Below the pieces are notes generated by a model. That model saw nothing but the letters and a program-made list of their open reading frames with translations. It did not search any database and was not told the origin of the DNA. From NCBI GenBank assembly GCA_043822245.1, contig JBDRBY010000081.1:10773-74772 (forward strand): a stretch of 64,000 bases of DNA, read 5' to 3'. The stretch is from Candidatus Omnitrophota bacterium (GTDB lineage: Bacteria > Omnitrophota > Gorgyraeia > Tantalellales > Tantalellaceae). The translations under genes and the position numbers were made by a program. This document shows, in pieces, positions 5,697-54,835 of the stretch. Each line of letters starts with the position of its first letter. The stretch's first letter is position 1.

Positions 5697-5730
5697 ATAC
5701 CCCGTGGTCCTCCTTTGAAAAGGGGGAAAC
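5697..5730 (+). repeat. Repeat B-like hairpin
   Basis: cctcctttgaaaagggggaaac. Confidence 0.4.
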
Positions 5731-5747: not shown

Positions 5748-5790
5748 AGGCAAAGCAGCCGTAGAGACGCGATTAATTGCGTCTCTGCCA
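5748..5790 (+). repeat. Repeat A partial copy (hairpin-1 module gtagagacgcgattaattgcgtctc)
   Basis: Shares gtagagacgcga...tcgcgtctc with copies 1 and 2, but the loop differs. Confidence 0.5.
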
Positions 5791-17137: not shown

Positions 17138-17180
17138 ATACCCCCTTTTCCAAAGTGGGGGAAAATTGTGGGCATTTAAT
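17138..17180 (+). repeat. Repeat B copy (inverted relative to 37040-37078)
   Basis: cccccttttccaaagtgggggaaaattgtgggcatttaat is the reverse complement of 37040-37078 (38/40 identity). Confidence 0.75.
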
Positions 17181-17272
17181 TTTTAGATTTGGCATAAGAT
17201 ATCATCGTGGCAAATGGGTGACGTCCCTATTTATTCCTATTTATTCCAGGGTTTGTCAAATGAGGCAGATAT

Positions 17273-18121
17273 ATGCATAAAATAATCAGAAAAGAACAGC
17301 TTAACGCGGATATTTGTTTGGTAGAGATTGAAGCGCGGGATCTCGCGCTCGCGGCAAGAGCGGGCCAGTTTGTTATTTTGCGAATTGACGAAAAAGGTGA
17401 AAGATTTCCTCTTAAGCTATATTACTGGGATGCTGACAAGGGCACAATCACGGTGGTTGTTCAGGCGGTCGGAGTAAGCACAAAAAAACTTTGCGCGCTA
17501 AATGCGGGAGACTTTATTTGTGATATAGCCGGCCCGCTGGGGCATTCCGCACGGACGGAAAAAATAGGTAAAGTAATTTGCGTTGGCGGCGGTGTCGGTA
17601 CTGCTGAAATATATCCAATCGCGAAGGCCATGAAAAACCAAGGCAATGATGTTACCGTGATAATCGGCGCCAGAACAAAAGATTTAATTATTTGTGAAGA
17701 AGCGATCCGTGAGTTTTGTGATAAGGTTTATATCACCACTGATGACGGTTCGCGTGGAAAAAAAGGATTTGTTACGGATATTTTAAAAAGTCTTTTGGAG
17801 AAAGATTCTTACGATCAGATCTTTGCCGTGGGGCCGCTGATTATGATGAAAATGGTTTCTGAGATGACGCGTTCAAAGCCTGTTAAGACGCTGGTATCTT
17901 TGAATTCAATAATGGTAGATGGTACGGGTATGTGCGGAGGATGCAGGATATTATACGATAAAAAAGCAAAGTTTACTTGTGTTGACGGGCCGGAATTTGA
18001 CGGCCATCTTGTTGATTTTGAAGACCTGATGAGGCGGCAGGGGAGATATCAGGGTAAAGAGAAAATCGCGTTGGATGCCCATGAAGGAAAATGCCGGATT
18101 GGTTTGGATAAAAAAGGGTAG
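17273..18121 (+). CDS. NfnA/SudB/PyrK-like FAD- and [2Fe-2S]-containing oxidoreductase subunit
   Basis: It has a ferredoxin-reductase-type FAD/NAD-binding fold and a C-terminal CGGC cluster (GTGMCGGCR). It is paired with the GltD-like downstream gene. Confidence 0.75.
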   Translation: MHKIIRKEQLNADICLVEIEARDLALAARAGQFVILRIDEKGERFPLKLYYWDADKGTITVVVQAVGVSTKKLCALNAGDFICDIAGPLGHSARTEKIGKVICVGGGVGTAEIYPIAKAMKNQGNDVTVIIGARTKDLIICEEAIREFCDKVYITTDDGSRGKKGFVTDILKSLLEKDSYDQIFAVGPLIMMKMVSEMTRSKPVKTLVSLNSIMVDGTGMCGGCRILYDKKAKFTCVDGPEFDGHLVDFEDLMRRQGRYQGKEKIALDAHEGKCRIGLDKKG

Positions 18122-18145: not shown

Positions 18146-18216
18146 GGAGGATGACAGAGGTGTAGGAGGATGACAGAGGTGTAGGAGGATGACAGGGGTG
18201 TAGGAGGATGACAGGA
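18146..18216 (+). repeat. 19-bp tandem repeat (GGAGGATGACAGRGGTGTA) x ~3.6 in the nfnA-nfnB intergenic region, preceded by hairpin tcctccggtcaagccggagga
   Basis: Units at 18146-18164, 18165-18183, 18184-18202 and a partial fourth. Each unit carries an SD-like AGGAGGA. Confidence 0.85.
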
Positions 18217-18220
18217 GCGC

Positions 18221-19615
18221 GTGATGAGAGAACAGTATCCGAGAGAACGTATAAAAAATTTCAAAGAAGTGCCGTATGGTTATTCGGTTGAAGAGGCTGT
18301 AAATGAAGCGTCAAGGTGTCTGCAATGTAAAAACGCGCCGTGCGTGAAAGGTTGTCCCGCTGAAATAGATATCCCTTCTTTTATCAAAGCCATTAAAGAA
18401 AAAAGGTTTCAATACGCGAATCCTATCATTAAAAAGACGAATAATCTTCCCGCGGTGTGCGGCAGAGTTTGCCCCCAAGAAGACCAATGCGAAAAAATGT
18501 GCGTGCTGATGAAGGCGAAGAAGGCGATTAATATCGGAACTCTTGAACGTTTCGCGGCAGATTGGGAACGGGAAAATATCGGAAACGATTCTCCCAATGC
18601 CTCCGCTTGTCATTGCGAGCCTGTCAATGTCAGGCGAAGCAATCTCAATAAAGAAAAAGTGGCGGTTATAGGCGCGGGACCGGCGGGCCTTACCTGTGCC
18701 GCGGATCTAGCGGATAAGGGATACAGGGTAACTGTTTTTGAGGCACTGCATAAACCCGGCGGAGTTTTAACTTATGGGATTCCGGAATTCAGGCTTCCTA
18801 AAGATATAGTGTACGGCGAAGTGGACGCGATACGCGCTCTTGGCGTGGAAATTAAATATAACTATGTGATCGGCAGGATTAAAACTATTGAAAAATTACG
18901 GCAAGAAGGATATGAGGCGTTTTTTATAGCCACAGGCGCGGGCTTGCCGTATTTTCTTGAGATTGAAGGGGAGAATCTCAGTGGTGTTTATTCAGCCAAT
19001 GAGTTTTTAACACGCGTGAATCTTATGAAAGCGTATAAGTTTCCGGAATATGATACGCCCATAAATGTAGGCAGGAAAGTGGCGGTTGTAGGTGCCGGTA
19101 ATGTGGCTATGGATTCGGCAAGGTCGGCGTTGAGGCTGAACGCCGAAAAAGTTTACATTGTTTACCGGCGCAGTGAAGAAGAAATGCCCGCGCGTATTGA
19201 TGAAATTCATCACGCGAAGGAAGAGGGAATAGAATTTCATCTTTTGACAAGCCCGGTAAAGATAATCGGCGATAAAGACGGAAACGTGCGAAAAATGGTA
19301 TGCCTGAAAAATAGGCTTGCTGAACCGGACGCGAGCGGCCGGAGGCGGCCTGTGGCTATTGAAGGGTCAGAGTATGAGATGGATATTGATACTGTTATAA
19401 TCGCGGTTGGTAACGGGCCAAACCCGCTTTTACTTGAGACAATAAAGGATTTAAAACTTACCATAAAAGGAAACATCGAAGCCGACGAAAACGGCAAAAC
19501 GAACGTAAAGGATATCTTTGCCGGAGGTGACATTGTCACCGGCTCCGCGACAGTCATAGCCGCCATGGGTGCCGGCAAACAAGCCGCGAAAGCGATTGAC
19601 AATTATTTAATGTAG
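18221..19615 (+). CDS. NfnB/SudA/GltD-like NADPH-dependent oxidoreductase (glutamate synthase small-chain family)
   Basis: Two 4Fe-4S Cys motifs (CLQCKNAPCVKGCP; CGRVCPQEDQCEKMC) and two Rossmann motifs (VAVIGAGPAGL; VAVVGAGNVAMD). The start is either GTG 18221 or ATG 18224. Confidence 0.8.
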   Translation: MMREQYPRERIKNFKEVPYGYSVEEAVNEASRCLQCKNAPCVKGCPAEIDIPSFIKAIKEKRFQYANPIIKKTNNLPAVCGRVCPQEDQCEKMCVLMKAKKAINIGTLERFAADWERENIGNDSPNASACHCEPVNVRRSNLNKEKVAVIGAGPAGLTCAADLADKGYRVTVFEALHKPGGVLTYGIPEFRLPKDIVYGEVDAIRALGVEIKYNYVIGRIKTIEKLRQEGYEAFFIATGAGLPYFLEIEGENLSGVYSANEFLTRVNLMKAYKFPEYDTPINVGRKVAVVGAGNVAMDSARSALRLNAEKVYIVYRRSEEEMPARIDEIHHAKEEGIEFHLLTSPVKIIGDKDGNVRKMVCLKNRLAEPDASGRRRPVAIEGSEYEMDIDTVIIAVGNGPNPLLLETIKDLKLTIKGNIEADENGKTNVKDIFAGGDIVTGSATVIAAMGAGKQAAKAIDNYLM

Positions 19616-22873: not shown

Positions 22874-24391
22874 ATGAAGAAGAATACCGGATTTGATAAT
22901 GAACTTTATCTGAAACAGCAGACCGAGGCGATACTTGAACGGGTTAATATGTTCGATAGTAAATTGTATCTTGAGTTTGGAGGGAAGATAATATTTGATT
23001 ATCACGCCTCGCGTGTTTTGCCCGGATTTGATCCCAACGTGAAGATGAAGCTCCTTCAAAAACTGAAAGATAAGGCTGATATATTGCTTTGTATTTACGC
23101 CGGCGATATAGAAAGAAGAAAAATCCGCGCGGATTTTGGCATTACTTATGACGTTGACGCGTTGAAATTGATAGATGATTTAAGAGAGTGGGAGATAGAA
23201 GTGCGAGCCGTGGTAATAACACGTTTTGATAATCAGCCTGCCGTGAAGATATTTAAAAATAAGCTTGAGAGGCGGGGCATGAAAGTATACACGCATCGTT
23301 ATACAAAGGGATACCCCACGGATGTGGACATGATTGTGAGCGACGAGGGGTACGGCGCGAATGATTATATTGAGACAAAAAATCCGCTGGTTATAGTAAC
23401 GGGCCCGGGCCCCGGAAGCGGGAAACTTGCCACGTGCCTTTCTCAGTTATACCATGACAATAAAAGGTGCCGAAAATCAGGATATGCCAAGTTTGAGACC
23501 TTTCCTATTTGGAATATTCCGTTGAAACATCCTGTGAATGTGGCCTATGAAGCGGCGACCGCCGATATAAAAGATTTCAACATGATCGATTCTTTTCATT
23601 TAGAAGCGTATAACAAAACCGCTGTTAACTACAATAGGGATATGGAAGTGTTTCCCGTATTAAAGAGAATTCTGGAAAGAATAACGGGAGCGGAATCAAG
23701 ATACAAGTCTCCCACGGATATGGGAGTTAATAAGGCAGGGTTCGCGATCCTTGATGACGAAGCGGTTCGTCAGGCGTCAAAGCAGGAAGTAATAAGAAGG
23801 TATTTTAGATTCGCGTGTGAACATGTGATGGGCCTGGCCGATAAAGACACCGTCGAGAGGGTGGAGCTTTTAATGAATGAGCTGAAAGTTACGACGGAAT
23901 GCAGGAGGGTTACCCTGCCCGCGCGTGAAGCGGCAAAAGAAGCCAAAGCAAAGGGCAAAGGCAATGAGGGTATTTTCTGTGGAGCGGCAATTGAGCTGAT
24001 GGACGGTTCTATAATTACCGGAAAAAATTCTTTTCTCATGCACGCCTCTTCAAGCCTCGTACTGAACGCGATAAAAAAATTAGCAGGGATACCTGATGAC
24101 ATACATTTATTATCACCAAAGACCATAGAGTCAGTAACCAGCCTGAAAAAGGACATTCTAAAATCCAAAACAGTAAGCCTGGATCTTGAAGAAACATTGA
24201 TAACACTGAGCATCAGCGCCTCTTCAAGCCCCGCGGCACAAACTGCCATGGAAAAGCTGAGAGAGCTTCATAGCTGTGAAGTTCATATGACACATATGCC
24301 GACTCCGGGTGATGAAGCGGGCCTGCGCAAACTAGGCGTGAATCTCACCAGCGAGCCCCAGTTTTCCAGTAAAAGTTTTTTTGTGGCGTAG
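22874..24391 (+). CDS. DUF1846/UPF0371 family protein
   Basis: ~505 aa. The N-terminus [19 protein letters not shown]...[23 protein letters not shown] matches my recollection of UPF0371. Confidence 0.55.
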
Positions 24392-24394
24392 AAA

Positions 24395-24595
24395 ATTAAA
24401 ATCCCTAAAATCCACCTAACCCACTTTTTCAAAGGGGGGATGGTTGTGTGTGGGGGTGGGGGTACTCTTAGATATAATGTCAAAAATAAAATTAGAGAAT
24501 TATGAAAAAATAATGAAGTAGTTTCCCCTCCCCCTTGAAAAAAGGAAGCCAACATTTCCCCCCTTTGAAAAAGGGGGTTAGGGGGTTTAAACAGA
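24395..24595 (+). repeat. Repeat B composite array (CCCCCTTTGAAAAAGGGGG hairpin family)
   Basis: Holds several copies of the G/C-tract hairpin. A ~115-bp module is shared with 40099-40215 (tgtcaaaaataa...agaattatgaaa...gaagtagtttccc...tttcccccctttgaaaaaggggg..agggggttt). Confidence 0.8.
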
Positions 24596-24600
24596 AAAGG

Positions 24601-24629
24601 TTGAATTTCATTATGTTACATACTATAAT
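24601..24629 (+). promoter_or_regulatory. sigma70-like promoter TTGAAT-17-TATAAT upstream of icd
   Basis: TTGAAT at 24601-24606, a 17-nt spacer, and TATAAT at 24624-24629. Confidence 0.5.
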
Positions 24630-24633
24630 GTAG

Positions 24634-24653
24634 GGCAAAGGCATGCCTTTGCC
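24634..24653 (+). promoter_or_regulatory. perfect 20-bp palindrome GGCAAAGGCATGCCTTTGCC, a candidate operator just downstream of a consensus promoter
   Basis: Lies 4 nt downstream of the TATAAT at 24624-24629. A 34-nt near-identical copy (aatgtagggcaaaggcatgcctgtgccgat) is at 51397-51430. Confidence 0.45.
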
Positions 24654-24681
24654 GATACGATAGACGGGAGGACATTTTAGA

Positions 24682-25914
24682 ATGATGAATAGAAAAGAAC
24701 TTATAGAAAAAGCTAAACAGCATTTTGGACAATTGGTGGAAGAACAATTAGACCGTGTCGAGATGATGAAAGGCCAAAAAGATTGGATTAATTACAAGAC
24801 ATTAAAACCGATAATTATTGGTATATGCTGGGGCGATGGTATCGGCAAGATTATTTCTAGGCATGCCGAAAAAGTTCTGAGGTATATGCTTAAGAAGGAA
24901 ACAGCCTCAGGCAGTGTTGAATTTCGCGATATTAGCGGGCTGACCATAGAAAACCGGGTTAAATGGAAAAAAGCTATTCCTGACGATGTGCTTTGTGAAC
25001 TGAAAAAATGTCATGTTATTCTAAAAGGGCCGACCACTACGCCGCAGGTTGGCGGCAAGTGGCTTAATATCGAAAGCGCGAATGTCGCTATGCGCCGTGA
25101 GCTAGATCTTTTCGCGAATGTTCGGCCCGTGAAAATACCGAGAGAAGGCGTTGATTGGTGTTTTTTTAGAGAAAACACGGAAGGCGCGTATATTCTGGGA
25201 TCGAGAGGTATAGACGTTAGCGAGAGTTTAAGTGTTGACTTTAAAGTTATAACCGAGGAAGGTTCTGAAAGAATAATCCGGATGGCGTTTGAATACGCTA
25301 AAACTAACGGTAAAAAAAGGGTTACTGCTGTTACAAAAGCGAATGTGGTGAAAACGACGGACGGAAGATTTTCCCGTATGGCAAAAAAAATTGCCGGAGA
25401 ATATTTAAAGTACGGCATAAAGCAGGATGAGTGGTATATTGACATTATGACCGCCAAACTTTTAGACCCGGCCCGGCGCAAAGATTTTCAGGTTATGGTT
25501 CTTCCTAATTTGTACGGAGATATACTTACGGATGAGGCGGCTCAGCTTCAGGGCGGAGTTGGTACCGCGGGCAGTGCCAATATAGGAAAAAAGTGGGCGA
25601 TGTTTGAAGCTATCCACGGCAGCGCGCCGCGTATGGTGGATGAAGGCCGCGATATTTACGCTGATCCGTCGTCAATGATCAGGGCCAGCGCGATGCTTCT
25701 CAGGCATATAGGTTTTACTGAAAGAGCCGATTGTTTAGATAAAGCGCTCGAAGTTTGCGGACAATTCGAGAAAAAGCTTGTTATAACAGGGAGAGATAAC
25801 GGAGCGACCGGAGAAGCATTTACCGAATACCTTTTAGAATGGGCCCAAAACCCCGAACTTGATAAAAAATGGCGGAACTTTGTCATTCCCGCGAAGAGAC
25901 AGTGTCATAATTGA
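24682..25914 (+). CDS. icd: NADP-dependent isocitrate dehydrogenase (prokaryotic IDH/IMDH family)
   Basis: ILKGPTTTP...NVAMRRELDLFANVRPV, FRENTEGAY and FEAIHGSAP align with E. coli Icd blocks. Confidence 0.7.
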   Translation: MMNRKELIEKAKQHFGQLVEEQLDRVEMMKGQKDWINYKTLKPIIIGICWGDGIGKIISRHAEKVLRYMLKKETASGSVEFRDISGLTIENRVKWKKAIPDDVLCELKKCHVILKGPTTTPQVGGKWLNIESANVAMRRELDLFANVRPVKIPREGVDWCFFRENTEGAYILGSRGIDVSESLSVDFKVITEEGSERIIRMAFEYAKTNGKKRVTAVTKANVVKTTDGRFSRMAKKIAGEYLKYGIKQDEWYIDIMTAKLLDPARRKDFQVMVLPNLYGDILTDEAAQLQGGVGTAGSANIGKKWAMFEAIHGSAPRMVDEGRDIYADPSSMIRASAMLLRHIGFTERADCLDKALEVCGQFEKKLVITGRDNGATGEAFTEYLLEWAQNPELDKKWRNFVIPAKRQCHN

Positions 25915-30533: not shown

Positions 30534-31386
30534 AGCACTCATACTGCGAACAGCAGGCACTAACTGCGACAAAGAGACAGAGTTCGCGTTTAATTCTGTC
30601 GGCGCGGAAGCTCAGTTAGTACATGTGAAGGCGTTGATAAAAGATAAATCAATGCTTGAGGAGTATCATATCCTCGCTATCCCCGGCGGATTTACCTACG
30701 GCGACGATATCGCGAGCGGCAAAATCCTTGCCAATGAACTTAAATTTGGGCTGGGCGGCGAGCTCTCCCGTTTTATATCTCAGGGCAAGATTATTATCGG
30801 TATTTGCAACGGGTTCCAGGTGCTCGTAAAAATGGGGCTTTTGCCCAATCTAACAGCGAACGCGGCTCCCCAGATAGAAGCAACCCTCAGTTTAAACGAT
30901 TCAGGACGTTTTGATGACAGATGGGTATACCTGAGGAATGTAAAATGTAAAATTAAAAATGTAAAAATAGAAGATGCTGAGTGTAAGATTGAAAATGTAG
31001 GAATGGAAGGTGTGAAATGTATTTGGGCTAAGGGGCTTCCGGATGTTATTTATTTGCCAATCGCGCACGCGGAAGGTAAATTTATACCGAAAGATAAAAA
31101 TGTGTTGGAGTCTTTACAAAAAAATAATCAAATCGTGTTTCGTTATTCGGATAGAAGCGGTAAAGTAGGCGCGGGGTATCCGCATAATCCAAATGGCTCA
31201 GTTGATGATATAGCGGGCATTTGTGATACCACCGGAAGAGTCTTCGGCATGATGCCGCATCCTGAAAGGCACATAACATATCTTCAGCATCCGAACTGGC
31301 GCCGCGTGGGTTTAGGTGATAGAAAGAAAATGGGAATAGGATTAAAAATCTTTGAAAACGGCGTGAATTTCGTAAGAGGACATTAG
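30520..31386 (+). CDS. purQ: phosphoribosylformylglycinamidine synthase glutaminase subunit
   Basis: Class-I GATase: IPGGFTYGDD, GICNGFQ, and a C-terminal HPER. Confidence 0.85.
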   Translation: MKKNKALILRTAGTNCDKETEFAFNSVGAEAQLVHVKALIKDKSMLEEYHILAIPGGFTYGDDIASGKILANELKFGLGGELSRFISQGKIIIGICNGFQVLVKMGLLPNLTANAAPQIEATLSLNDSGRFDDRWVYLRNVKCKIKNVKIEDAECKIENVGMEGVKCIWAKGLPDVIYLPIAHAEGKFIPKDKNVLESLQKNNQIVFRYSDRSGKVGAGYPHNPNGSVDDIAGICDTTGRVFGMMPHPERHITYLQHPNWRRVGLGDRKKMGIGLKIFENGVNFVRGH

Positions 31387-31413
31387 TTCGACTAATGGTT
31401 TCAGAACGATAAA

Positions 31414-31588
31414 GGAAAAATTGAAAAAGATGTAGAGACGCGATTTATCGCGTCTCATACCGATGTTCTGGCCGTGTGGGATGTTGGGGTAAATCTTGCA
31501 AGCAATATTTCCCCCAAACGGCTCGGACATTAATTCGACTAATGGTTTCAGAACGATACCCGTTCTGAAACCAAAGTCTCATTAAGGA
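31414..31588 (+). repeat. Repeat A copy 1: ~175-bp structured intergenic element ending in an SD (aaggag)
   Basis: ~90% identical to 54655-54829. It contains hairpin 1 gagacgcga-ttta-tcgcgtctc and hairpin 2 ggtttcagaac-gataccc-gttctgaaacc. A 25-nt direct repeat ttcgactaatggtttcagaacgata flanks it (31388-31412 and 31534-31558). Confidence 0.8.
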
Positions 31589-31594
31589 GCCAAG

Positions 31595-32648: not shown

Positions 32649-32712
32649 CCCATTGTCATCCCGGAATTTTGCAAAGCAAAATATCCTGGATACATCAACC
32701 AAAGGTATTATC

Positions 32713-36760: not shown

Positions 36761-37036
36761 ATGGACCTTAAAAAATACTCACAATACACAAAAGAAAAAG
36801 AGAACAAATTTGAAGCTGTTTGCGCAAGGTGCGGCCAGTGTTGCGGCGCGTTGGATGACCCGTGTCAAAATCTCGCGAAAGATGAAAGCGGCAGATATTT
36901 TTGCAAAGATTACAAAAACCGTCTTGGCCCGCAAAAAACCGCCTCAGGCAATTTTTTCAACTGTGTCCCTATTCGCGAACACATTTCACACTCAACTCTC
37001 AGGCCAGCCTGCGCGTACAAATTATACCAACTCTAA
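36761..37036 (+). CDS. YkgJ-family cysteine-cluster (putative Zn/Fe-chelating) protein
   Basis: CARCGQCC (CxxCxxCC) is the hallmark of PF03692, and the C-terminus carries RPACAY. Confidence 0.45.
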   Translation: MDLKKYSQYTKEKENKFEAVCARCGQCCGALDDPCQNLAKDESGRYFCKDYKNRLGPQKTASGNFFNCVPIREHISHSTLRPACAYKLYQL

Positions 37037-37270
37037 AAATTAAATGCCCACAATTTTCCCCCACTTTGGAAAAGGAGGCAGGTGGATTTTTTGTAAATCC
37101 GGAATAAAATCTTCCCTATCCCCTCTTTGTCAAAGAGGGGGAAGACATATGAATGGTTGTTTTTTGGTGGTATAGTCGCGAATGTACATTTATTTTCTGT
37201 ATTTGGTATAACAGCATGAATCCCCACTCTGAAAAGGAAATAAAGTCGTCACCCCTTTGAAAAATGGATA
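37028..37270 (+). repeat. Repeat B composite array
   Basis: ttcccccactttggaaaagg, cccctctttgtcaaagaggggg and cacccctttgaaaaatgg hairpins. Positions 37040-37078 are the reverse complement of 17140-17180. Confidence 0.7.
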
Positions 37271-37608
37271 GTGTAACATATTATGGGTACTTTCAAGATT
37301 GTCATCCCGGAATTTCGCGGAGCGAAATATCCGGGATCTATAAGATTTAATCATTTTTAGATTACTGATCCCCGCTTCCCCCCTTCGGGGACTTCGCGCG
37401 GGGATGACACCAGGTCAAAGTGTCCATAACTCTTGACACTATGTTTTATAAAAAAATCCATCATATTAAACAAAAATATGGTACTATATTAAATCCTGAT
37501 GTTGCACTAGACCATGGCGAATGACACTAATCTTTTAGCTCAAAAATCTTAGCATTCTTCATCCATGGTCTAATTCAATATCCGGGTTACAAAAAAAGGG
37601 AGGGCAAT

Positions 37609-39216: not shown

Positions 39217-39379
39217 CGTAGCGTAGTAAAAGAATGTGGCCATCCGCCTCTGGGTTGCCCAAATACTTATTCTGTACAGCTAAACAGATTTGTTTCTACC
39301 ACATAGTGTACCCTCTCTTATTTCTATTACCATATAGAGTGTATCCATAAAACATGTCAAAACAGCTAAAAATAGTGGT

Positions 39380-39444: not shown

Positions 39445-39893
39445 TGTTCTATGGCGAATATAATCATACATTAGACAAGAAAAACCGGATGATACTTCCG
39501 TCGCGGTTCCGTGTTCCTATTAAAGAAATGGGTATCGAAAAACTGTACATAACACGGGGTTTAGACGAATGTCTTTTTGTGTTCGCGGAAGATGAATGGA
39601 AGGCGCAGGAAAATAAATTCAAAGCAATGCCTTTTACTAAAAAAGAAGTAAGAAAGTTTAAACGGTTGTTTTTTTCAGGAGCTGTTGAAGCCGTGCCGGA
39701 TAAACAGTGGCGCATACTAATTCCGGATTATTTAAAAGAATACGCGTGTTTGTCAAAAAATATAATGATAATCGGGATTTCCAATCGAATAGAGATATGG
39801 GACAAAAAGAAATGGGAAGATTTTTATAAAACTTCAAAAGAGAATTATGAAGATATTGCTGAGAATCTAATAGAGTTAGACCCTAAAGAATAA
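39444..39893 (+). CDS. mraZ: transcriptional regulator MraZ
   Basis: MFYGEYNHTLDKKNRMILPSRFR, with the duplicated DxxxR SpoVT/AbrB-like halves. First gene of the dcw cluster. Confidence 0.9.
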   Translation: MFYGEYNHTLDKKNRMILPSRFRVPIKEMGIEKLYITRGLDECLFVFAEDEWKAQENKFKAMPFTKKEVRKFKRLFFSGAVEAVPDKQWRILIPDYLKEYACLSKNIMIIGISNRIEIWDKKKWEDFYKTSKENYEDIAENLIELDPKE

Positions 39894-40098
39894 GGGAAGG
39901 AGGTTTGCCATGTATAGGCGTTATGCGGTCAAATTACACGAAAAGCAGGTAGAGTTTGTTAATTGCGTGAACATAACAGAGAGGATTAAAAAGGCTAGAG
40001 CGCTTCCTTCAGGAACTTCGCATTTGGGGGTAGAACGATATGTAGTTTCTTCAGTTAATTCCAATATGATGAAATATGTATCGATGAAAAATTGTTGA

Positions 40099-40330
40099 TA
40101 GTGTCAAAAATAACATGAAAGAATTATGAAAGAAAGAGTGAAGTAGTTTCCCTTCTCTTTTTTGAAAAAAGGGCAGATCTTTCCCCCCTTTGAAAAAGGG
40201 GGACAGGGGGATTTGATACAAGATGAACTGTAAAATGAATCTAAAATCAAATGCATATCGATTGTGGAGAGAAATGACAAAATCCCCCTAACCCCCTTTT
40301 TCAAAGGGGGAATTTTAAGGGGGAGGGAAG
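40099..40330 (+). repeat. Repeat B composite array with ~30-bp inverted terminal copies
   Basis: cccctttgaaaaagggggacagggggattt at 40180-40215 and its reverse complement aaatccccctaaccccctttttcaaaggggg at 40277-40310 flank a ~60-bp core. The architecture is MITE-like. Confidence 0.8.
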
Positions 40331-40616
40331 TTAATCTTAGATAACTGCTTTAAATGCAAAGGATTAAGAAAAATTTGGATACAAACTTTTGACAATACCA
40401 AATTGTTTATAAGGGAGGAGTAATGAAAAAGTATTTGCAGGCGTGTGAATTAGGCGGATCGATTTATGGAAGAAAACGTACGGCCGCCAGGTCCGGCAGA
40501 TCAAGTAAAAGCTCCACAAGGAAAAAAACTAATCTTTTGAATGACTATGACAATCTTTATAAAAATCAATTTAGCCTTATGAGCAGGATTTTTCGGCGCG
40601 CGAAATAATTTATTTT

Positions 40617-41513
40617 ATGAACTCTGAACTAAAACACATTCCGGTTCTTTGCCAGGAAATTATGGGGTATCTGAAGCTAAATCAGGGGGACACTGTTTTT
40701 GACGCGACCCTTGGCGGCGGCGGACACGCGGGGGAAATATTAAAAAAGATAATTCCCGAAGGTATTCTTATAGCCGTTGATAGAGATATAGAAGCGATCG
40801 AAAGAGTTAAGTTTGGATTAAAGCAGTATGAGGGAAGTATTATTTACGCGAATGACAGTTTTAGAAATATTGACCAGATTTTAAGACGAGAGCGTATAAC
40901 AGAGCTTGACTCAGCCGTGTTTGACTTGGGGATGTCGTCTTTCCAGATAGATGACGCTGAGAGAGGTTTTAGCTTTTTAAAAGACGGCCCTTTGGATATG
41001 AGATTTGATAAATCTCAAGAGCTCTCAGCCGTGGAAGTTGTAAACAAGTTTGGCATGGAAAAACTCGCGGATATCATAAAAGAGTACGGCGAAGAGAGGC
41101 ACGCGAAACTTATAGCGTCCGCTGTAGCGGTAGCCCGGAAGAAAAAACGGATAAGTACTACCGGCGAGTTGAAAGAAGTAATTTATCAGGCGGTGGGAAG
41201 GAAATATTCAAGACAAAAATTGAATCCGGCGGCGAGGACTTTTCAGGCGCTCAGGATTTATGTGAATGACGAACTTGAGGCTATAGAGGATGCTGTGGCC
41301 AAAACAATTTCTTATTTAAAGCCAAATGGCAGAATTTGTGTGATATCGTTTCATTCTTTGGAAGACAGGATAGTAAAAAACATTTTTCGAAATAAACAAA
41401 GAGAAAAGGAGATTTCTGTTATAACGAAGAAACCGATTTATCCGTCTCGTGAAGAGATAGCGGTAAATCACAGATCGAGGAGCGCGAAATTGCGCGTAGC
41501 AGAAAAACTGTAA
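40617..41513 (+). CDS. rsmH: 16S rRNA (cytosine1402-N4)-methyltransferase
   Basis: HIPVL, DATLGGGGHA, and the conserved C-terminus. Confidence 0.9.
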   Translation: MNSELKHIPVLCQEIMGYLKLNQGDTVFDATLGGGGHAGEILKKIIPEGILIAVDRDIEAIERVKFGLKQYEGSIIYANDSFRNIDQILRRERITELDSAVFDLGMSSFQIDDAERGFSFLKDGPLDMRFDKSQELSAVEVVNKFGMEKLADIIKEYGEERHAKLIASAVAVARKKKRISTTGELKEVIYQAVGRKYSRQKLNPAARTFQALRIYVNDELEAIEDAVAKTISYLKPNGRICVISFHSLEDRIVKNIFRNKQREKEISVITKKPIYPSREEIAVNHRSRSAKLRVAEKL

Positions 41514-43605: not shown

Positions 43606-43680
43606 TCAATGGCCGGAATTCCCGCGCAAAATCCCCGAAGGGGGAAAGCGGGAATCTATGATATGAAATGAAGCGCAAAT

Positions 43681-47579: not shown

Positions 47580-47665
47580 ACCAATTCCCTCCTTTTTTTC
47601 AATGGAGGAATTGGTATGAAATTCCCCCCTTTGAAAAAGGGGGACAGGGGGATTTTATCCACGAA
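47580..47665 (+). repeat. Repeat B copy upstream of murD
   Basis: ttcccccctttgaaaaagggggacagggggatttt is nearly identical to 40166-40203. Confidence 0.75.
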
Positions 47666-47669
47666 AAAA

Positions 47670-48983
47670 ATGAACATAATTAACGTAAAAAACAAAAAGG
47701 TTCTTGTGCTTGGGCTTGGCGTGAGCGGGTATGCCGCGGCAAAACTTTTGACTGAGAGGGGAGCAAAGGTAAAGGTAAGTGAGGCTTCTGATAACGGCGC
47801 GGTTCAAGATTATTCTGGAAAATTACAACAATACTCAATTCCGTGTGAAATGGGCGGACATACCAAAGGTTTTTGCGAAGACGCGGAAATTGTCGTTATA
47901 AGCCCCGGTATTTCTTTGTCCAAGGTAGAGTTGTCCAAGATACTTCATAGAAATGCCGCCATAATGGGAGAATTAGAATTAGGTTTTCTGTTTTGCCGCG
48001 CGCCGATAATCGCGATAACAGGAACTAATGGCAAGAGCACGGTAACAAAGCTTATCGGTAATATTCTTTCTGTCGGCGGTAGGCACACGGTAGTTAGCGG
48101 AAATATTGGTAATCCGCTAAGCGGTGAAGTAGATTTGCTTACAGAAACAAGCCTGGCAGTGGTAGAAGTAAGTTCTTTTCAGCTGGAAACTATAAAACAT
48201 TTTAAACCGTATATTGCCGTTCTTTTAAATGTTACCGAAGACCACTATGAAAGACACACGAATTATGATGAGTACAAGGCCGTGAAATTCAAAATCTTTG
48301 AAAACCAAACGTCAGATGATTGGGCGGTTTTGCATCCTTGTTTTCGGGGCGATGAGTTGCTGAGCGAGATAAAATGCCGGTGCTTATTTTACGAAGCGCG
48401 CCAGGACAAAATTATAGAAGATATCATAAAATCCGGTGAAATGCCTCTTAAAGGCGTGCACAACATAGATAATGCCGCCTGTGCCGCGGTTGTCGCGAGA
48501 ATCGCTGGTATAGACGACAACGCGATACGTGATGGCATAAAAAACTTTACGGCTTTAGATCATCGTTTTGAAACAATAAAAGAATTTAACGGAATAGAGT
48601 TTATTGATGATTCAAAAGCTACGAATATTGACGCCGCGTATCAAGCGCTTAAATCAATGGACAAAAAAACTATTCTTATTGCAGGCGGCAGGGATAAAGG
48701 AGGCGATTATCTCTCGATTTTGCCTATGGTAAAAGAAAAAGTAAGAGTCATGGTTGTTATGGGCGAGAGCGCTTCAAAAATAAAGAACGCCTTTAAAGAT
48801 GTTCTTGTCGTGCGTACGGCAAAAGACATGAAAGAAGCAGTTACTATCGCCTACAGCGAAGCAAAAAAAGGCGAAGCCGTCATCCTCTCCCCCATGTGCT
48901 CAAGTTTCGATATGTTTTCAAGCTACAAAGAGAGGGGACAAGTTTTTAGAAAAGAAGTTAATTCGTTGACGGTTGACTGTTGA
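47670..48983 (+). CDS. murD: UDP-N-acetylmuramoylalanine--D-glutamate ligase
   Basis: KKVLVLGLGVSG Rossmann motif and GTNGKST. The ATG at 47670 follows the repeat element, so the ORF-track extension to 47616 is rejected. Confidence 0.85.
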   Translation: MNIINVKNKKVLVLGLGVSGYAAAKLLTERGAKVKVSEASDNGAVQDYSGKLQQYSIPCEMGGHTKGFCEDAEIVVISPGISLSKVELSKILHRNAAIMGELELGFLFCRAPIIAITGTNGKSTVTKLIGNILSVGGRHTVVSGNIGNPLSGEVDLLTETSLAVVEVSSFQLETIKHFKPYIAVLLNVTEDHYERHTNYDEYKAVKFKIFENQTSDDWAVLHPCFRGDELLSEIKCRCLFYEARQDKIIEDIIKSGEMPLKGVHNIDNAACAAVVARIAGIDDNAIRDGIKNFTALDHRFETIKEFNGIEFIDDSKATNIDAAYQALKSMDKKTILIAGGRDKGGDYLSILPMVKEKVRVMVVMGESASKIKNAFKDVLVVRTAKDMKEAVTIAYSEAKKGEAVILSPMCSSFDMFSSYKERGQVFRKEVNSLTVDC

Positions 48984-49150
48984 TTTGTTGTATTTGTTTA
49001 GTTGTACAGAATAAGCTTTTACGCGAACCAGAGGCGAATGGCCGCATTCCGCGCGCTTCACGATTTGCCTGTTATTTTTTAAGATTGCTTCGTCGCGAAA
49101 AGCGCTCCTCGCAATGACACTTTTCGTGGTGAGACGGTCATCTTAACGAA

Positions 49151-50304: not shown

Positions 50305-51435
50305 ATGAAAATTATACTTGCCGCAGGCGGAAGCGGAGGGCATATTTTCCCTGCCGTGGCTTTAGCCGCGGAACTTAAAAAACGCGGGATTAAAGATATT
50401 TTTTTTGTTTCAAGCAAAAGGCGTTTAGATAAAAGCATCTTGGATGCTCAGAAGCATAGATGTTTTTTTCTTTCCGTGAATCCCTTGCCCGGAGGGTTTA
50501 AGCCGTTGGGTTTTTTTGTTTTCGCGATAAAGTTTTTCGTTGATATGGTAAGAGCTGGTGGGATTGTATTGAAGATACGGCCGGATGTTGTGGTAGGGTT
50601 CGGCGGATATTCTTCCTGCGCCATAGCGGTAACGGCATGGATTTTTAAAATTCCGGTTATGGTTCATGAGCAGAACATCGAGCCGGGAATCGCGAACAAA
50701 ATGTTGAGCCGTCTCGCCAAACGTATCGCGATTAGTTTTAGGGGGGCTGAAGGGTGTTTTGGTTACGTGAAAGAAAAAATTTTTTATTCAGGAAATCCTT
50801 TGAGGATGGATATTTTGTTTAATGATAGAAAAAAATCTGCTGAGAAATTAGGTATTGCTTCTGACAAATTTACCGTTTTAGTAATAGGGGGCAGTCAGGG
50901 GGCCTCGTTTTTGAATAAGATAGCCTCAGAATGCGCGTTAGTGATAAAAGAGCGAATGGGTGATATGGCGCAATTTATTCACATTACAGGACGCCAAAAT
51001 GACGAAAGAATAAGAGAGTTTTACCGTGTAAATAAAATTAACGGCAAAGTTTACGCGTTTTTGGAAAACATAGCCGACGCGTACGCGGCAAGTGATGTAG
51101 CCGTGAGCCGCTCCGGCGCGGCCGCGATATTTGAACTGGCGTTTTATGGGAAGCCCATGATTTTGGTGCCATATCCAAATCCGAAAAATAGTCAAAAACA
51201 TAACGCTGTGTATTTTTCGAAAAACGGAGCCGCGCTCCTTCGAGAAGAAAAGGAACTTGATTGTAACGGCTTAGCCTCTGATGTCATCAAATTTTTAAAC
51301 AATGAATCTTATCGAGCCGACATGGCAAAAGCCGCGTTAAAACTTGCTGTTCCCGAAGCAGGAAGTGTTTTAGCGGAGGAAGTGATAAAAATGGCAAAAT
51401 GTAGGGCAAAGGCATGCCTGTGCCGATGTGAATGA
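50305..51435 (+). CDS. murG: UDP-GlcNAc:undecaprenyl-PP-MurNAc-pentapeptide GlcNAc transferase
   Basis: GGSGGHIFPA N-terminal motif. The last ~12 codons run through the palindromic repeat, so the C-terminus is uncertain. Confidence 0.85.
   Translation: MKIILAAGGSGGHIFPAVALAAELKKRGIKDIFFVSSKRRLDKSILDAQKHRCFFLSVNPLPGGFKPLGFFVFAIKFFVDMVRAGGIVLKIRPDVVVGFGGYSSCAIAVTAWIFKIPVMVHEQNIEPGIANKMLSRLAKRIAISFRGAEGCFGYVKEKIFYSGNPLRMDILFNDRKKSAEKLGIASDKFTVLVIGGSQGASFLNKIASECALVIKERMGDMAQFIHITGRQNDERIREFYRVNKINGKVYAFLENIADAYAASDVAVSRSGAAAIFELAFYGKPMILVPYPNPKNSQKHNAVYFSKNGAALLREEKELDCNGLASDVIKFLNNESYRADMAKAALKLAVPEAGSVLAEEVIKMAKCRAKACLCRCE
51397..51430 (+). repeat. second copy of the GGCAAAGGCATGCCTNTGCC palindromic element, at the murG/murC junction
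   Basis: aatgtagggcaaaggcatgcctgtgccgatgtga matches 24627-24660 with 3 mismatches. Confidence 0.6.
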
Positions 51436-53756: not shown

Positions 53757-54724
53757 AAAATTATCGAATTGGAGTCCTTGCCGGCGGGTCGTCCAGCGAA
53801 AGACAAATAAGCCTTCGAAGCGGCAAAGCGGTTTTTAACGCGTTGAAGGGGAATGGGTTTGATGTTCTCTTTCTTGATGTTGATGAAAATAATTTTTTAA
53901 AGCGGATAAAAGAAAATAAGGTTGACATTGCTTTTATCGCTTTACACGGCAAATTCGGAGAAGACGGGACTGTTCAAAAAATACTTGAGGAGGAGGGAAT
54001 TTCTTATACCGGTTCATCTGTTGAAGCCTCTCGGTTAGCTATTGATAAATTATTGACAAAGGATATTTTAAGGAAGAACGGCATACCTGTTCCCGGATAC
54101 AAAATTGTTCACAAAGGTATGGATATTTCTTGTTTGGATTTAGTTTATCCCTGTGTGGTCAAGCCCCGATATGAAGGTTCAAGTGTAGGGCTTTCTGTTC
54201 TTCATTCCAAAGAAAATTTATACGAAGCTGTAAAAACTGCTATGCGGTATAGCGATGATGTTATTATTGAGGATTTTATTTCGGGTAGAGAAGTAACGGT
54301 TGGTATACTTGAGCGAAAGGCTCTTCCTGTTGTGGAAATAATTGCTGAGACGGGAGTTTATGATTTTGACGCGAAATATGAGTCATCCAAGACAAAGTAT
54401 ATCGTGCCGGCGGAATTAGATAAGGACGTTTTTTGTCTATGCCAGGAGATTTCTTTAAAAGCGCATAACGCTCTTGGATGTGGAGATTTTTCACGAGTAG
54501 ATTTAAGACTGAGGGCAAAAAATGAGGTTTTTGTGTTGGAGATTAATACCATACCGGGCCTTACTGAGCGTAGTCTTCTTCCTATGGCCGCGAAAGCGTG
54601 TGGATTGGATTTTTTACAAGTTTGTGTTAAGATGATGGGGGGGGGTATGCGAAGTAAAGGAAAAATTGAAAAAGACGTAGAGACGCGATTTATCGCGTCT
54701 CATACCGATGTTCCGGCCGTGTAG
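53750..54724 (+). CDS. ddl: D-alanine--D-alanine ligase
   Basis: ATP-grasp Ddl motifs. The C-terminal ~25 codons are encoded by the Repeat-A element, so the C-terminus may be remodelled. Confidence 0.85.
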   Translation: MVENYRIGVLAGGSSSERQISLRSGKAVFNALKGNGFDVLFLDVDENNFLKRIKENKVDIAFIALHGKFGEDGTVQKILEEEGISYTGSSVEASRLAIDKLLTKDILRKNGIPVPGYKIVHKGMDISCLDLVYPCVVKPRYEGSSVGLSVLHSKENLYEAVKTAMRYSDDVIIEDFISGREVTVGILERKALPVVEIIAETGVYDFDAKYESSKTKYIVPAELDKDVFCLCQEISLKAHNALGCGDFSRVDLRLRAKNEVFVLEINTIPGLTERSLLPMAAKACGLDFLQVCVKMMGGGMRSKGKIEKDVETRFIASHTDVPAV

Positions 54725-54829
54725 GATGCTGGGGTAAATCTTCTACGCATATTTCCCCCAAACGGCACGGACATTAATTCGACTAATGGTTTCAGAACAA
54801 TGCTTGTTCTGAAACCAAAGTCTCTTTAA
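54655..54829 (+). repeat. Repeat A copy 2
   Basis: Aligns to copy 1 with a few substitutions. Overlaps the 3' end of ddl and supplies the SD of ftsQ. Confidence 0.8.
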
Positions 54830-54835
54830 GGAGAT

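Follow-up and report, generated by a model that had tools for sequence, protein, structure and literature searches.

The intergenic repeats of Escherichia coli known as BoxC were rediscovered as PIT elements (Hoyne et al., 2000, as cited in PMC4666352) and have been studied under the name TMECO (Holder et al., 2015, PMC4666352). They have been known since the 1990s, and no function, partner protein or route of spreading has been found for them (PMC4666352). Here we describe a repeat of the same structural kind, dispersed through a 64,000-nt stretch of DNA from a Candidatus Omnitrophota bacterium (GenBank assembly GCA_043822245.1, contig JBDRBY010000081.1, positions 10,773 to 74,772 of the forward strand; the window in what follows). 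The explanation that we prefer, to which we give a probability of about 0.6, is that the repeat units, which are of triplex type, are the end-repeats of cassettes that carry a gene of the DUF559 family (PF04480), and that the copies in the window are remnants of this system.

The TMECO consensus is 5'-CCCTCNCCC N3-6 GGGNGAGGG N3 GGGNGAGGG-3', with TTA or CCG as the second loop, and the isolated strand forms a stable triplex by circular dichroism and nuclear magnetic resonance (PMC4666352). TMECOs are intergenic, occur in both orientations and are often found as inverted pairs of two loop types (PMC4666352). The units in the window have the same order of blocks on one strand: a pyrimidine arm (Y), a loop, a purine arm (R), a linker, and a tail (R') that mirrors the purine arm. 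Y is CCCCC(C)TTT and is followed, after a loop of 1-3 nt, by its Watson-Crick partner R, which is AAAGGGGG(G). A linker of 2-5 nt, occasionally longer, leads to R', GGGGG(G)ATTT. The tail repeats R in mirror order, and either A or T may stand opposite A. Written in blocks, a typical unit is CCCCCTTT-gaa-AAAGGGGG-aca-GGGGGATTT; the common unit of the window is about 33-34 nt long and reads TTCCCCCCTTTGAAAAAGGGGG-ACA-GGGGGATTT. The unit strand written out is 5'-TTCCCCCCTTTGAAAAAGGGGGACAGGGGGATTT, and there is a sub-type of the form CCCCTCTTTG-N-CAAAGAGGGG-TTA-GGGGAGATTT.

The repeat is far more frequent in the window than chance would allow. Its core, CCCCCTTTGAAAAAGGGGG, matches 13 times with up to three mismatches, as against 0.01 expected from shuffles; matches lie at 5709, 17141, 24420, 24559, 37060, 37121, 40184, 40292 and 47625. 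We also scanned the window for the architecture of class II triplexes, that is, stems of 6-15 nt, loops of 1-6 nt and the order Y, R, third block. The scan found 8 motifs compared to a mean of 0.25 in 20 dinucleotide shuffles. Five units (24558-24589, 37108-37141, 40182-40214, 40280-40310 and 47623-47655) have stems of 9-10 nt with at most one Watson-Crick and at most one third-strand mismatch. The copies at 5.7 kb, 17.1 kb and 37.22-37.27 kb are degenerate; under a relaxed scan, degenerate copies still comply in part with the three-block rules. Hairpin stability alone is not the signal, since the 8-bp hairpin of a single unit (-7.8 kcal/mol as DNA) folds no better than shuffled sequences (z -0.5). 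The inverted pair at 40.1 kb folds as one long hairpin (-33.8 kcal/mol, z -7.2), the folding energies here and above modeling Watson-Crick pairs only.

The most telling part of the unit is the block beyond the hairpin. The first-pass annotation of this DNA had named the shared flank as the feature that would separate the family from generic hairpins, and the flank does so: it reads (A/G)GGGGGATTT in the window, and a run of at least four G followed by ATT is found 2-5 nt, occasionally more, past the hairpin in 124 of 156 oriented exact-core instances, which comprise the listed genome loci of other phyla and the window copies. The C-run and the two G-runs after it change length together, (5,5,5) being seen 53 times and (6,6,6) 25 times. 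When all perfect pyrimidine/purine hairpins of the fetched loci are taken together (273 sites), 238 strand-instances have a tail in mirror order to their purine arm, one mismatch at most being allowed, and 35 distinct arms are represented. Examples of arm and tail are AAAGAGGGG with GGGGAGATT, AAAGGGAGG with GGAGGGATT, AAAGGAGGG with GGGAGGATT, GGGGGAGAGGG with GGGTGAGGGGG, GGGGGAGGA with AGGTGGGGG, and GGGGGAAGG with GGATGGGGG. Among the arms that are mirror-asymmetric, 23 of 32 carry the mirror tail and 8 of 32 the direct one. The mirror rule holds for 42 instances, whereas permuting the tails among the arms 1000 times gave a mean of 13.9 and a maximum of 22.

A mirror tail in which G faces G, and A or T faces A, has no Watson-Crick partner in either arm, and it fits an antiparallel reverse-Hoogsteen third strand. 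Going by the covariation, the unit very likely has the architecture of a class II, purine-motif intrastrand triplex, and triplex formation is predicted for this sequence. Once the unit strand is single-stranded, the Y:R hairpin would form, and R' would fold back antiparallel to R in the major groove to give G·G:C, A·A:T and T·A:T triplets. Two other roles for the tail were considered and rejected. Watson-Crick pairing of the tail with the pyrimidine arm fails, as interrupted variants keep the mirror order and not the complementary one. A direct-repeat protein site (GGGGGATT twice) fits the 8 asymmetric arms with direct tails, against 23 for the mirror.

How widespread is the unit? A search with the exact 19-mer core over one genome per species returned at least 119 loci in which the exact core is followed by the same tail, and the earlier suspicion that the family extends beyond this window was thus correct. 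The loci belong to many phyla and groups: Omnitrophota, Desulfobacterota, Chloroflexota, Ignavibacteriota, Gamma- and Betaproteobacteria, Myxococcota, Acidobacteriota, Nitrospirota and Brocadiia. Cultured genera are among them (Lysobacter, Iodobacter, Thiothrix, Chromatium and Muribacter). Outside the unit of about 35 nt, no homology was found between the window and the other unit-bearing loci listed. The units are embedded in long open frames in 21% of cases, compared to 72% for random positions. It should be added that exact units are also present on a contig binned as a Methanobacteriota archaeon (L108), a candidate case of mis-binning, and on 13 IMG/VR contigs (L122-L134) that are predicted to be viral or prophage and may carry host flanks. 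A plasmid BLAST with the unit gave nothing meaningful, for which the low-complexity filter is possibly to blame.

The family is distinct in sequence from the repeats of E. coli. The TMECO pattern has no match in the window. The strings CCCCCTTT, AAAGGGGG and GGGGGATT are absent from PMC4666352 and the parts of its supplement that were compared, and no paper containing the core was found in the literature searched. Since the stems are unlike those of TMECO, the strings are absent and there is no Rfam match, we consider the repeat to be a known kind of structure in a new sequence family of very broad distribution. The two kinds can occur together: TMECO-like units co-occur with units of the window family at five loci (L023, L025, L054, L075 and L096).

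Clustering the open reading frames (ORFs) of the at least 119 core loci revealed a sole specific recurrent neighbor, a protein of about 120 aa present in four of the listed loci; the rest were generic paralogue families. The four loci are from an Omnitrophota genome (L029), Thalassocella (L018), Sulfuricella (L099) and Bdellovibrionales (L102). All four proteins match PF04480, with E values of 1e-31 to 1e-35, and all four genes are bracketed, one unit standing just before the start codon and one just after the stop codon.

The association is also seen when loci are chosen by the protein alone. Metagenomic loci were fetched with a DUF559 protein alignment and no use of the repeat, and the best 80 of at least 573 matches, which carry no taxonomy, were taken. 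A class II unit lies within 200 nt of the gene in 70 of the 80 loci (upstream in 61, downstream in 61 and on both sides in 52). Close to the gene there are 6.27 units per kb, and over the rest of these loci 0.23 per kb, a contrast tempered by the mostly coding nature of the control DNA. Dinucleotide shuffling of the flanks reduces the 177 units that they hold to 1.8. Upstream of the DUF559 match, the unit shares the strand of the gene (median gap 14 nt); downstream of the match, it is on the other strand (median gap 12 nt). This fixed geometry is found in 42 loci. The two flanking units frequently differ in sub-type, one being of a G6-type and the other of a GGGGAG-type, and the same two sub-types make gene-less pairs in Methylococcaceae and at 37060-37141 of the window.

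The sequence of the unit follows the clade of the protein. In one DUF559 clade, there are 55 loci with units that have an A/T foot and one with GC-only units. In the other, which includes E. coli YcjD, the numbers are 10 GC-only and none with an A/T foot. Among eight isolate replicons (Synechocystis, Deinococcus, Neisseria, Azospirillum, Pseudanabaena, Picosynechococcus, Sinorhizobium and Photobacterium), seven have lineage-specific class II units beside the annotated DUF559 gene. DUF559 falls within the Vsr-like branch of the PD-(D/E)XK nucleases (PMC3424549, PMC1189080); its profile matches the solved structure PDB 3hrl (E 1e-32) and, at a greater distance, 3r3p, the catalytic domain of the homing endonuclease I-Bth0305I (E 1e-3). 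In sum, we take the association as shown, with fairly high confidence: the units are end-repeats that stand, inverted to each other, next to the start and the stop of a DUF559 gene of about 120 codons, the whole being a compact cassette. The link between DUF559 and the units is new: it was not found in the literature searched, the TMECO paper included (PMC4666352).

Two features of the cassettes deserve mention. In many of them, the G-run of the tail lies 3-9 nt before the start codon, which is why the tail may double as a ribosome-binding site. Two metagenomic cassettes (L139 and L145) have extra inverted repeats of about 20 bp outside both units, GGGCATAAGCG(G/C)TAACTTA (GGGCATAAGCGxTAACTTA), so that an additional set of ends encloses the units in some cassettes.

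The copies in the window are solo units, gene-less pairs and one putative decayed cassette, at 40182-40310 (Table 1). Of the forms seen (solo units, inverted pairs and composite arrays), the solo unit of about 33 nt is the commonest. The case for the cassette comes from the 64-bp spacer between the two inverted units at 40.1 kb. An ATG is situated 8 nt past the tail, as in intact cassettes. In a tblastn search with the DUF559 protein of the Omnitrophota locus L029, the spacer is the best match in the window (E 0.01), KMNLKSNAYRLWREMT being aligned to KVNLKHNARRLRKEMT. The spacer DNA is about 74% identical to the 5' end of the L029 gene, with a score of 36 compared to 22 +/- 2.6 for shuffled sequences, none of 300 of which reach that score. 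From the position of the ATG, the tblastn match and the DNA alignment, we read 40182-40310 as a decayed cassette, and the inverted pair as the putative end-repeats of a gene cassette that is intact in other genomes. The first-pass annotation had described two inverted copies of about 30 bp around a core of about 60 bp at this place; the inverted pair is real (40184-40214 and 40310-40280, 94% by self-BLAST), but its core appears to be a relic of a DUF559 gene and not the core of a miniature inverted-repeat transposable element (MITE). The hairpin at 40280-40310 also has a weaker tail on the plus strand (40291-40325).

Table 1. Repeat units and associated features in the window. Block sequences are given on the unit strand.
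Feature	Position	Strand	Sequence	Basis
Degenerate unit	5697-5727	-	TCCCCCTTT-tc-AAAGGAGGA-cc-ACGGGGTAT	1 Watson-Crick, 2 third-strand mismatches
Degenerate unit, part of 54-bp repeat 17144-17197	17141-17175	+	CCCCCTTT-tcc-AAAGTGGG-ggaaaatt-GTGGGCAT	1 Watson-Crick, 3 third-strand mismatches
Degenerate unit, opposite orientation	24409-24438	-	CCCCCTTT-gaa-AAAGTGGG-tta-GGTGGATT	Relaxed scan: 1 Watson-Crick, 2 third-strand mismatches; 94% to 40279-40310
Leader module 5' of unit: AT-rich stretch and relic hairpin 24525-24550	24474-24555	+		Common to 40098-40180; 82% over 115 bp including unit; repeat families D4, D5, D16
Intact unit	24558-24589	+	CCCCCCTTT-ga-AAAAGGGGG-tta-GGGGGTTTA	Class II scan: 1 Watson-Crick, 0 third-strand mismatches; exact core
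Degenerate unit	37060-37088	+	CCCACTTT-gga-AAAGGAGG-ca-GGTGGATT	Relaxed scan: 2 Watson-Crick, 0 third-strand mismatches; within 37022-37098
Unit of second sub-type	37108-37141	-	CCCCCTCTTT-gac-AAAGAGGGGA-t-AGGGAAGATT	Class II scan; gene-less pair with 37060-37088
Two relic hairpins	37221-37270	+	CCCCACTCTGAAAAGG, CACCCCTTTGAAAAATGG	Repeat family D4; sequence reading
Leader module, second copy, with relic hairpin 40151-40176	40098-40180	+		Self-BLAST, relaxed scan
Intact unit, putative upstream end-repeat of decayed cassette	40182-40214	+	TCCCCCCTTT-ga-AAAAGGGGGA-c-AGGGGGATTT	Class II scan; 100% to 47622-47655
Putative relic 5' end of DUF559 gene	40223-40280	+	Translation MNCKMNLKSNAYRLWREMT	tblastn and DNA alignment to L029
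Intact unit, opposite orientation, putative downstream end-repeat	40280-40310	-	CCCCCTTTG-a-AAAAGGGGG-tta-GGGGGATTT	Class II scan; 94% complementary to 40184-40214
Intact solo unit, mraY-murD spacer	47623-47655	+		Class II scan

The remaining copies show other states of the same unit. The region 24409-24589 is a rearranged array, with a leader that it shares with the 40.1-kb array (24474-24585 and 40098-40210 in self-BLAST). The region 37060-37141 is a gene-less pair of two sub-types; its second member is of the sub-type found downstream of DUF559 genes and is 95% identical over 40 bp to Methylococcaceae copies (L066 and L092). The copies at 47623-47655, 17141-17175 and 5697-5727 are solo and in differing states of decay. 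The first of these is identical over 34 bp to one of the 40.1-kb units (40181-40214 and 47622-47655), and the 54 bp at 17144-17197 are the reverse complement of 37075-37022 (96%). The places of the copies, the module of about 115 bp and the reverse-complement relation had all been noted in the first-pass annotation, and self-BLAST and the core search agree with it on each.

All copies sit between plus-strand genes, and the long ORFs with matches to known families are all on the plus strand. The 24.4-kb array is between a DUF1846-type gene and icd, the 47.6-kb copy between mraY and murD, and the 37-kb copies upstream of a malic-enzyme gene. The 40.1-kb array is between mraZ and rsmH, within the dcw cluster. 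The family had been thought to mark operon boundaries: the intergenic placement holds, but the 40.1-kb array is not upstream of mraZ. The MraY encoded in the window is 100% identical to a protein of a metagenome-assembled genome at NCBI, and its close relatives all come from Omnitrophota. At the mraY-murD site, a relative with an 87% identical MraY keeps a trace of a degenerate unit only, and a 77% relative has a 27-bp spacer with no unit. Turnover of the units is therefore real, although a clean empty site was not found in the relatives compared, the 87% relative retaining its trace. In our reading, the window copies would be inert leftovers with little effect on the flanking host genes. Promoter and terminator scans gave nothing inside the units and no terminator-like site at 24350-24700 or 39880-40640.

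Two observations concern the neighborhood of the arrays. A sigma-70-like site (TTGAAT-17 nt-TATAAT, 10/12 matches) is present at 24601-24629, outside the repeat, between the unit at 24558-24589 and icd. Right after mraZ there is a small ORF, 39910-40098 on the plus strand (MYRRYAVKLHEKQVEFVNCVN...), which is kept in the 77% relative (L121 1991-2182, MYKHYAIKFHKKQVEFINCVN...); it is probably a real small gene in an unusually long mraZ-rsmH gap.

The units also mislead annotation. The minus-strand ORFs 24283-24555 and 40104-40304 are translations of the repeat (PPLKKW, PPFSKGG). The murD ORF has its start, 47616, inside the unit, and by sequence reading the ATG at 47670 leads to a typical MurD N-terminus. 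These ORFs and the extension had been suspected to be artefacts, rightly so. The units give many spurious ORFs and N-terminal extensions in metagenome-assembled genomes (MAGs), recognizable by peptides such as ..PPFSKGG.. or ..SPLNPPL...

How could such units spread? We think it possible, at somewhat less than even odds, that the DUF559 nuclease acts on the unit and that copying primed at a nick spreads the units and the cassette. The nuclease would recognize or nick the unit, either folded or as a duplex, and repair or recombination primed at the nick would carry copies of single units, of pairs or of the entire cassette to further intergenic places. Spread of this kind would be analogous to that of REP sequences by RAYT proteins or of homing endonuclease genes. 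A bolder proposal, which we hold more tentatively still, is that two inverted triplex units and a DUF559 gene make up an unrecognized autonomous selfish element, whose Vsr-like nicking nuclease would recognize the three-stranded hairpin in its folded form, or the duplex from which it arises, and would drive the copying of units, of gene-less pairs and of itself.

E. coli allows the link with DUF559 to be checked independently. K-12 has one DUF559 gene, ycjD, on the minus strand (1351407-1351760). Past its stop codon, some 170 nt lead to TMECO no. 9 (1351204-1351239; Table 1 of PMC4666352), and the stop codon itself is within a relic hairpin, CCCTCTCCCtgaaagagcGAGGGGG. Between the ycjD stop and TMECO no. 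9 (L135, NC_000913.3 1351200-1351420), the final ~50 nt of ycjD are present once more as a partial duplicate, followed by a relic tail, GGGTTAGGGG. The duplicate suggests repeated copying of the 3' end of the cassette.

The number of TMECOs varies with the presence of ycjD, which is found in 3378 of 5426 complete genomes. We take K-12, BL21, HS, 55989, IAI1, W, E24377A and APEC O78 to be of phylogroups A, B1 or C; CFT073, UTI89, IHE3034, S88, APEC O1, UM146 and JJ1886 to be of phylogroup B2; and 042, UMN026, IAI39 and Xuzhou21 to be of phylogroups D, F or E. Genomes of the first set have 19-30 TMECOs each, those of the second 1-2 and those of the third 6-15 (PMC4666352 supplement). The gene ycjD is present in phylogroups A, B1 and C, and the eef operon is in its place elsewhere (PMC12817139, 2026). 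Our own counts, from a search of the region of ycjD and TMECO against all complete genomes with sample rows spread over the ranking, agree with the published TMECO counts and with the phylogroup distribution. There are 15-28 matching places in ycjD-positive chromosomes (median 21, n=37), as against 1-21 in ycjD-negative ones (median 11, n=21; Mann-Whitney p 6e-9, uncorrected for phylogeny). The trend fits a role of ycjD in maintaining or spreading the units.

Several points weigh against the explanation by DUF559 cassettes. The class II scanner was written for this analysis. No class II unit was found at 10 of the 80 DUF559 loci, and in Deinococcus the orientation of the units is reversed. Within the 64-kb window, there is no intact DUF559 gene, and the relic is short, of about 19-20 codons. 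A DUF559 profile HMM run on the window does not find the relic significant (E 2.9, rank 2 of 2874), as is to be expected for only about 20 residues. The case for triplex formation here is built from covariation and the TMECO precedent, and in vivo footprinting with DMS in E. coli detected no stable triplex (PMC4666352). The authors of the TMECO study found no mobility genes nearby (PMC4666352), and we found no report of nuclease activity on these units in the literature searched. Descent confounds the contrast in E. coli, which also has exceptions, 17-21 TMECOs being kept by some genomes that lack ycjD. Finally, the association would be explained just as well if DUF559 genes homed into pairs of units already in place, or if the units regulated the DUF559 gene.

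The last point leads to a reading in which DUF559 is a host housekeeping nuclease that resolves hairpin or triplex obstacles, the adjacent units being autoregulatory or a landing pad, and in which the units spread not through the gene but by processes such as slippage, gene conversion or hitch-hiking within other elements. It accords with the single copy and fixed locus of ycjD in E. coli, with the retention of TMECOs in genomes that lack ycjD, with the position of the tail G-run in many cassettes, and with the blocking of DNA polymerase by PIT elements in vitro, as related in PMC4666352. We nonetheless find it unlikely. Inverted units abut both the start and the stop of the gene in many phyla, and their sequence co-varies with the protein, which is more like the ends of a mobile element than an operator. 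Moreover, the same two sub-types recur in cassettes that have decayed and in pairs that lack the gene, and the 3' end of ycjD is partly duplicated beside TMECO 9.

The first-pass annotation had favored a MITE-like nature. On a classical MITE account, the inverted copies of about 30 bp would serve as terminal inverted repeats for a DDE transposase whose gene is located elsewhere, and insertions into earlier insertions would have produced the arrays. Inverted pairs do exist in the window, and the outer repeats of L139 and L145 are of the kind expected. MITE-like carriers of the unit pair also exist elsewhere. In Methylococcaceae (L020, L066, L092 and L113) and Competibacteraceae (L070 and L111), a type 1 unit in forward orientation, about 10 nt and a type 2 unit in reverse make up the inside of elements of about 105 bp. 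These have outer inverted repeats, GTAAG(T/C)(A/G)TTCA...TGAAT(A/G)(A/G)TTAC, and duplications of 8-9 bp (8/8 in L113, 9/9 in L111, 7/8 in L020, 6/8 in L066 and L070, and none in L092). Their ends presumably resemble those of the IS66 family. The window copies, however, have neither a target-site duplication nor a common outer repeat at the boundaries of units or pairs, and the spacers within pairs are unrelated between genomes. The prevalence of solo units does not suit terminal repeats, and mirror covariation of tail and arm is not a property of transposase ends. The presumed core at 40.1 kb appears to be a gene relic. Clustering of ORFs near units across the listed loci gave no recurrent transposase, no explicit search for one having been made. 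A classical MITE is thus an improbable account of the window copies.

An element acting at the RNA level, be it a terminator or attenuator, an mRNA-stabilizing hairpin or a small RNA, is still less probable. The units do lie between genes and inside operons, the 8-bp hairpin is stable, and the 40.1-kb pair folds strongly. Against this, the units face either way although the genes around them share a single strand, the units have no T-run or terminator call, and the third block co-varies as a mirror and not as a Watson-Crick partner. There is no Rfam match in the window at the gathering score, and at a permissive level only chance-level miRNA and snoRNA matches at 40050-40400. A tRNA scan of the window found none. 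In the account of earlier work given in PMC4666352, RNA does not form triplexes of the purine motif, and neither promoter nor terminator activity was seen with PIT elements.

There is very little to recommend the idea of REP/BIME-type elements moved by RAYT, a Y1 HUH transposase. REP elements too are short imperfect palindromes, intergenic, solo or in inverted pairs, and a gene between inverted copies is the REP-RAYT arrangement. The comparison, which had been suggested earlier, breaks down on the absence of a conserved 5' GTAG (GT(A/G)G) from the consensus and on the nature of the flanked gene, which is PF04480, with a PD-(D/E)XK fold, and not a Y1 transposase. The clustering gave no other recurrent neighbor, RAYT genes not having been searched for explicitly. 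Lastly, generic G/C-tract hairpins of independent origin, which the low-complexity, nearly palindromic core and the unremarkable fold of a single unit might suggest, can be dismissed on the shared flank, kept across phyla, on the excess of core matches over shuffles and on the 34 bp of identity between two window copies.

The genome is rich in small structured repeats of other kinds. A second family consists of a 180-bp module found at 31410-31589 and 54655-54833 (92% identity); the family is represented also at 5757-5785 and 31378-31411. The module contains the hairpins GTAGAGACGCGATTTATCGCGTCTC and GGACATTAATTCGACTAATGGTTTCAGAAC, in three copies each. The GAGACGCGATTTATCGCGTCTC hairpin is present also in a Methylococcaceae MAG (L113), where a triplex-unit MITE with an 8-bp duplication is in the hairpin loop; being in both the window and L113, this hairpin crosses phyla too. 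No intact copy of the GAGACGCGATTNATCGCGTCTC hairpin was found in the fetched loci. A 19-bp tandem repeat, GGAGGATGACAGAGGTGTA, of about 3.6 copies (97-100%) occupies 18146-18214, between the genes 17273-18121 and 18221-19615. There are, in addition, four pairs of short intergenic repeats with 84-97% identity: 32652-32691 and 37298-37337, 24627-24656 and 51398-51427, and, inverted, 39232-39286 and 48995-49049, and 37367-37402 and 43621-43656. Two of the four are hairpins (ATTGTCATCCCGGAATTT...AAATATCCGGGAT and AATGTAGGGCAAAGGCATGCCTTTGCC).

In closing, if two units and a DUF559 gene do form an autonomous selfish element, we would have an account of how repeats of the BoxC/PIT/TMECO type arose and how they spread among Bacteria. 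It would give a function to the large DUF559 family, E. coli YcjD included, and a structure-based pair of repeat and nuclease would join REP-RAYT. A single hypothesis brings two puzzles together, drawing on the flanking of 70 of 80 genes, the covariation of unit and clade, the position of ycjD beside a TMECO and the difference in TMECO counts. The question of the origin of BoxC/PIT thereby becomes testable.

Among the known systems, H-DNA shares with the unit the mirror repeat, R-linker-R' being one under purine-motif rules. H-DNA needs a mirror repeat in duplex only, whereas the units carry the Y arm on the same strand, which makes for a self-contained single-strand fold. Like MITEs, the elements are small, intergenic and non-coding with inverted ends; the window copies differ in having no duplications, conserved internal core or transposase. 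The Vsr-like EDxHD homing endonucleases (I-Bth0305I, PMC3239194) have a homologous catalytic domain and are likewise small, selfish-looking genes with decayed copies. DUF559, however, has no NUMOD/HTH DNA-binding region, and its genes are placed between structured repeats and not in introns or inteins; homing by DUF559 is putative. With REP/BIME/REPIN and RAYT, the likeness extends to a single-copy nuclease-type gene between inverted copies of a short structured repeat, and to a repeat sequence that co-varies with the clade of the protein. The protein here is Vsr-like, and the unit has a mirror tail in place of a plain palindrome. Closest are BoxC/PIT/TMECO. These have the same three blocks on one strand, the same triplet rules and identical linker lengths, even to the linkers TTA, CCG and CTA, and they too are intergenic, in both orientations, solo or in inverted pairs of two sub-types, with a copy number that varies among relatives. 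The window family is set apart from them by stems with an A/T foot (CCCCCTTT / AAAGGGGG / GGGGGATTT, as against CCCTCNCCC / GGGNGAGGG / GGGNGAGGG), by its link to DUF559, and by a spread over many phyla beyond the Proteobacteria.

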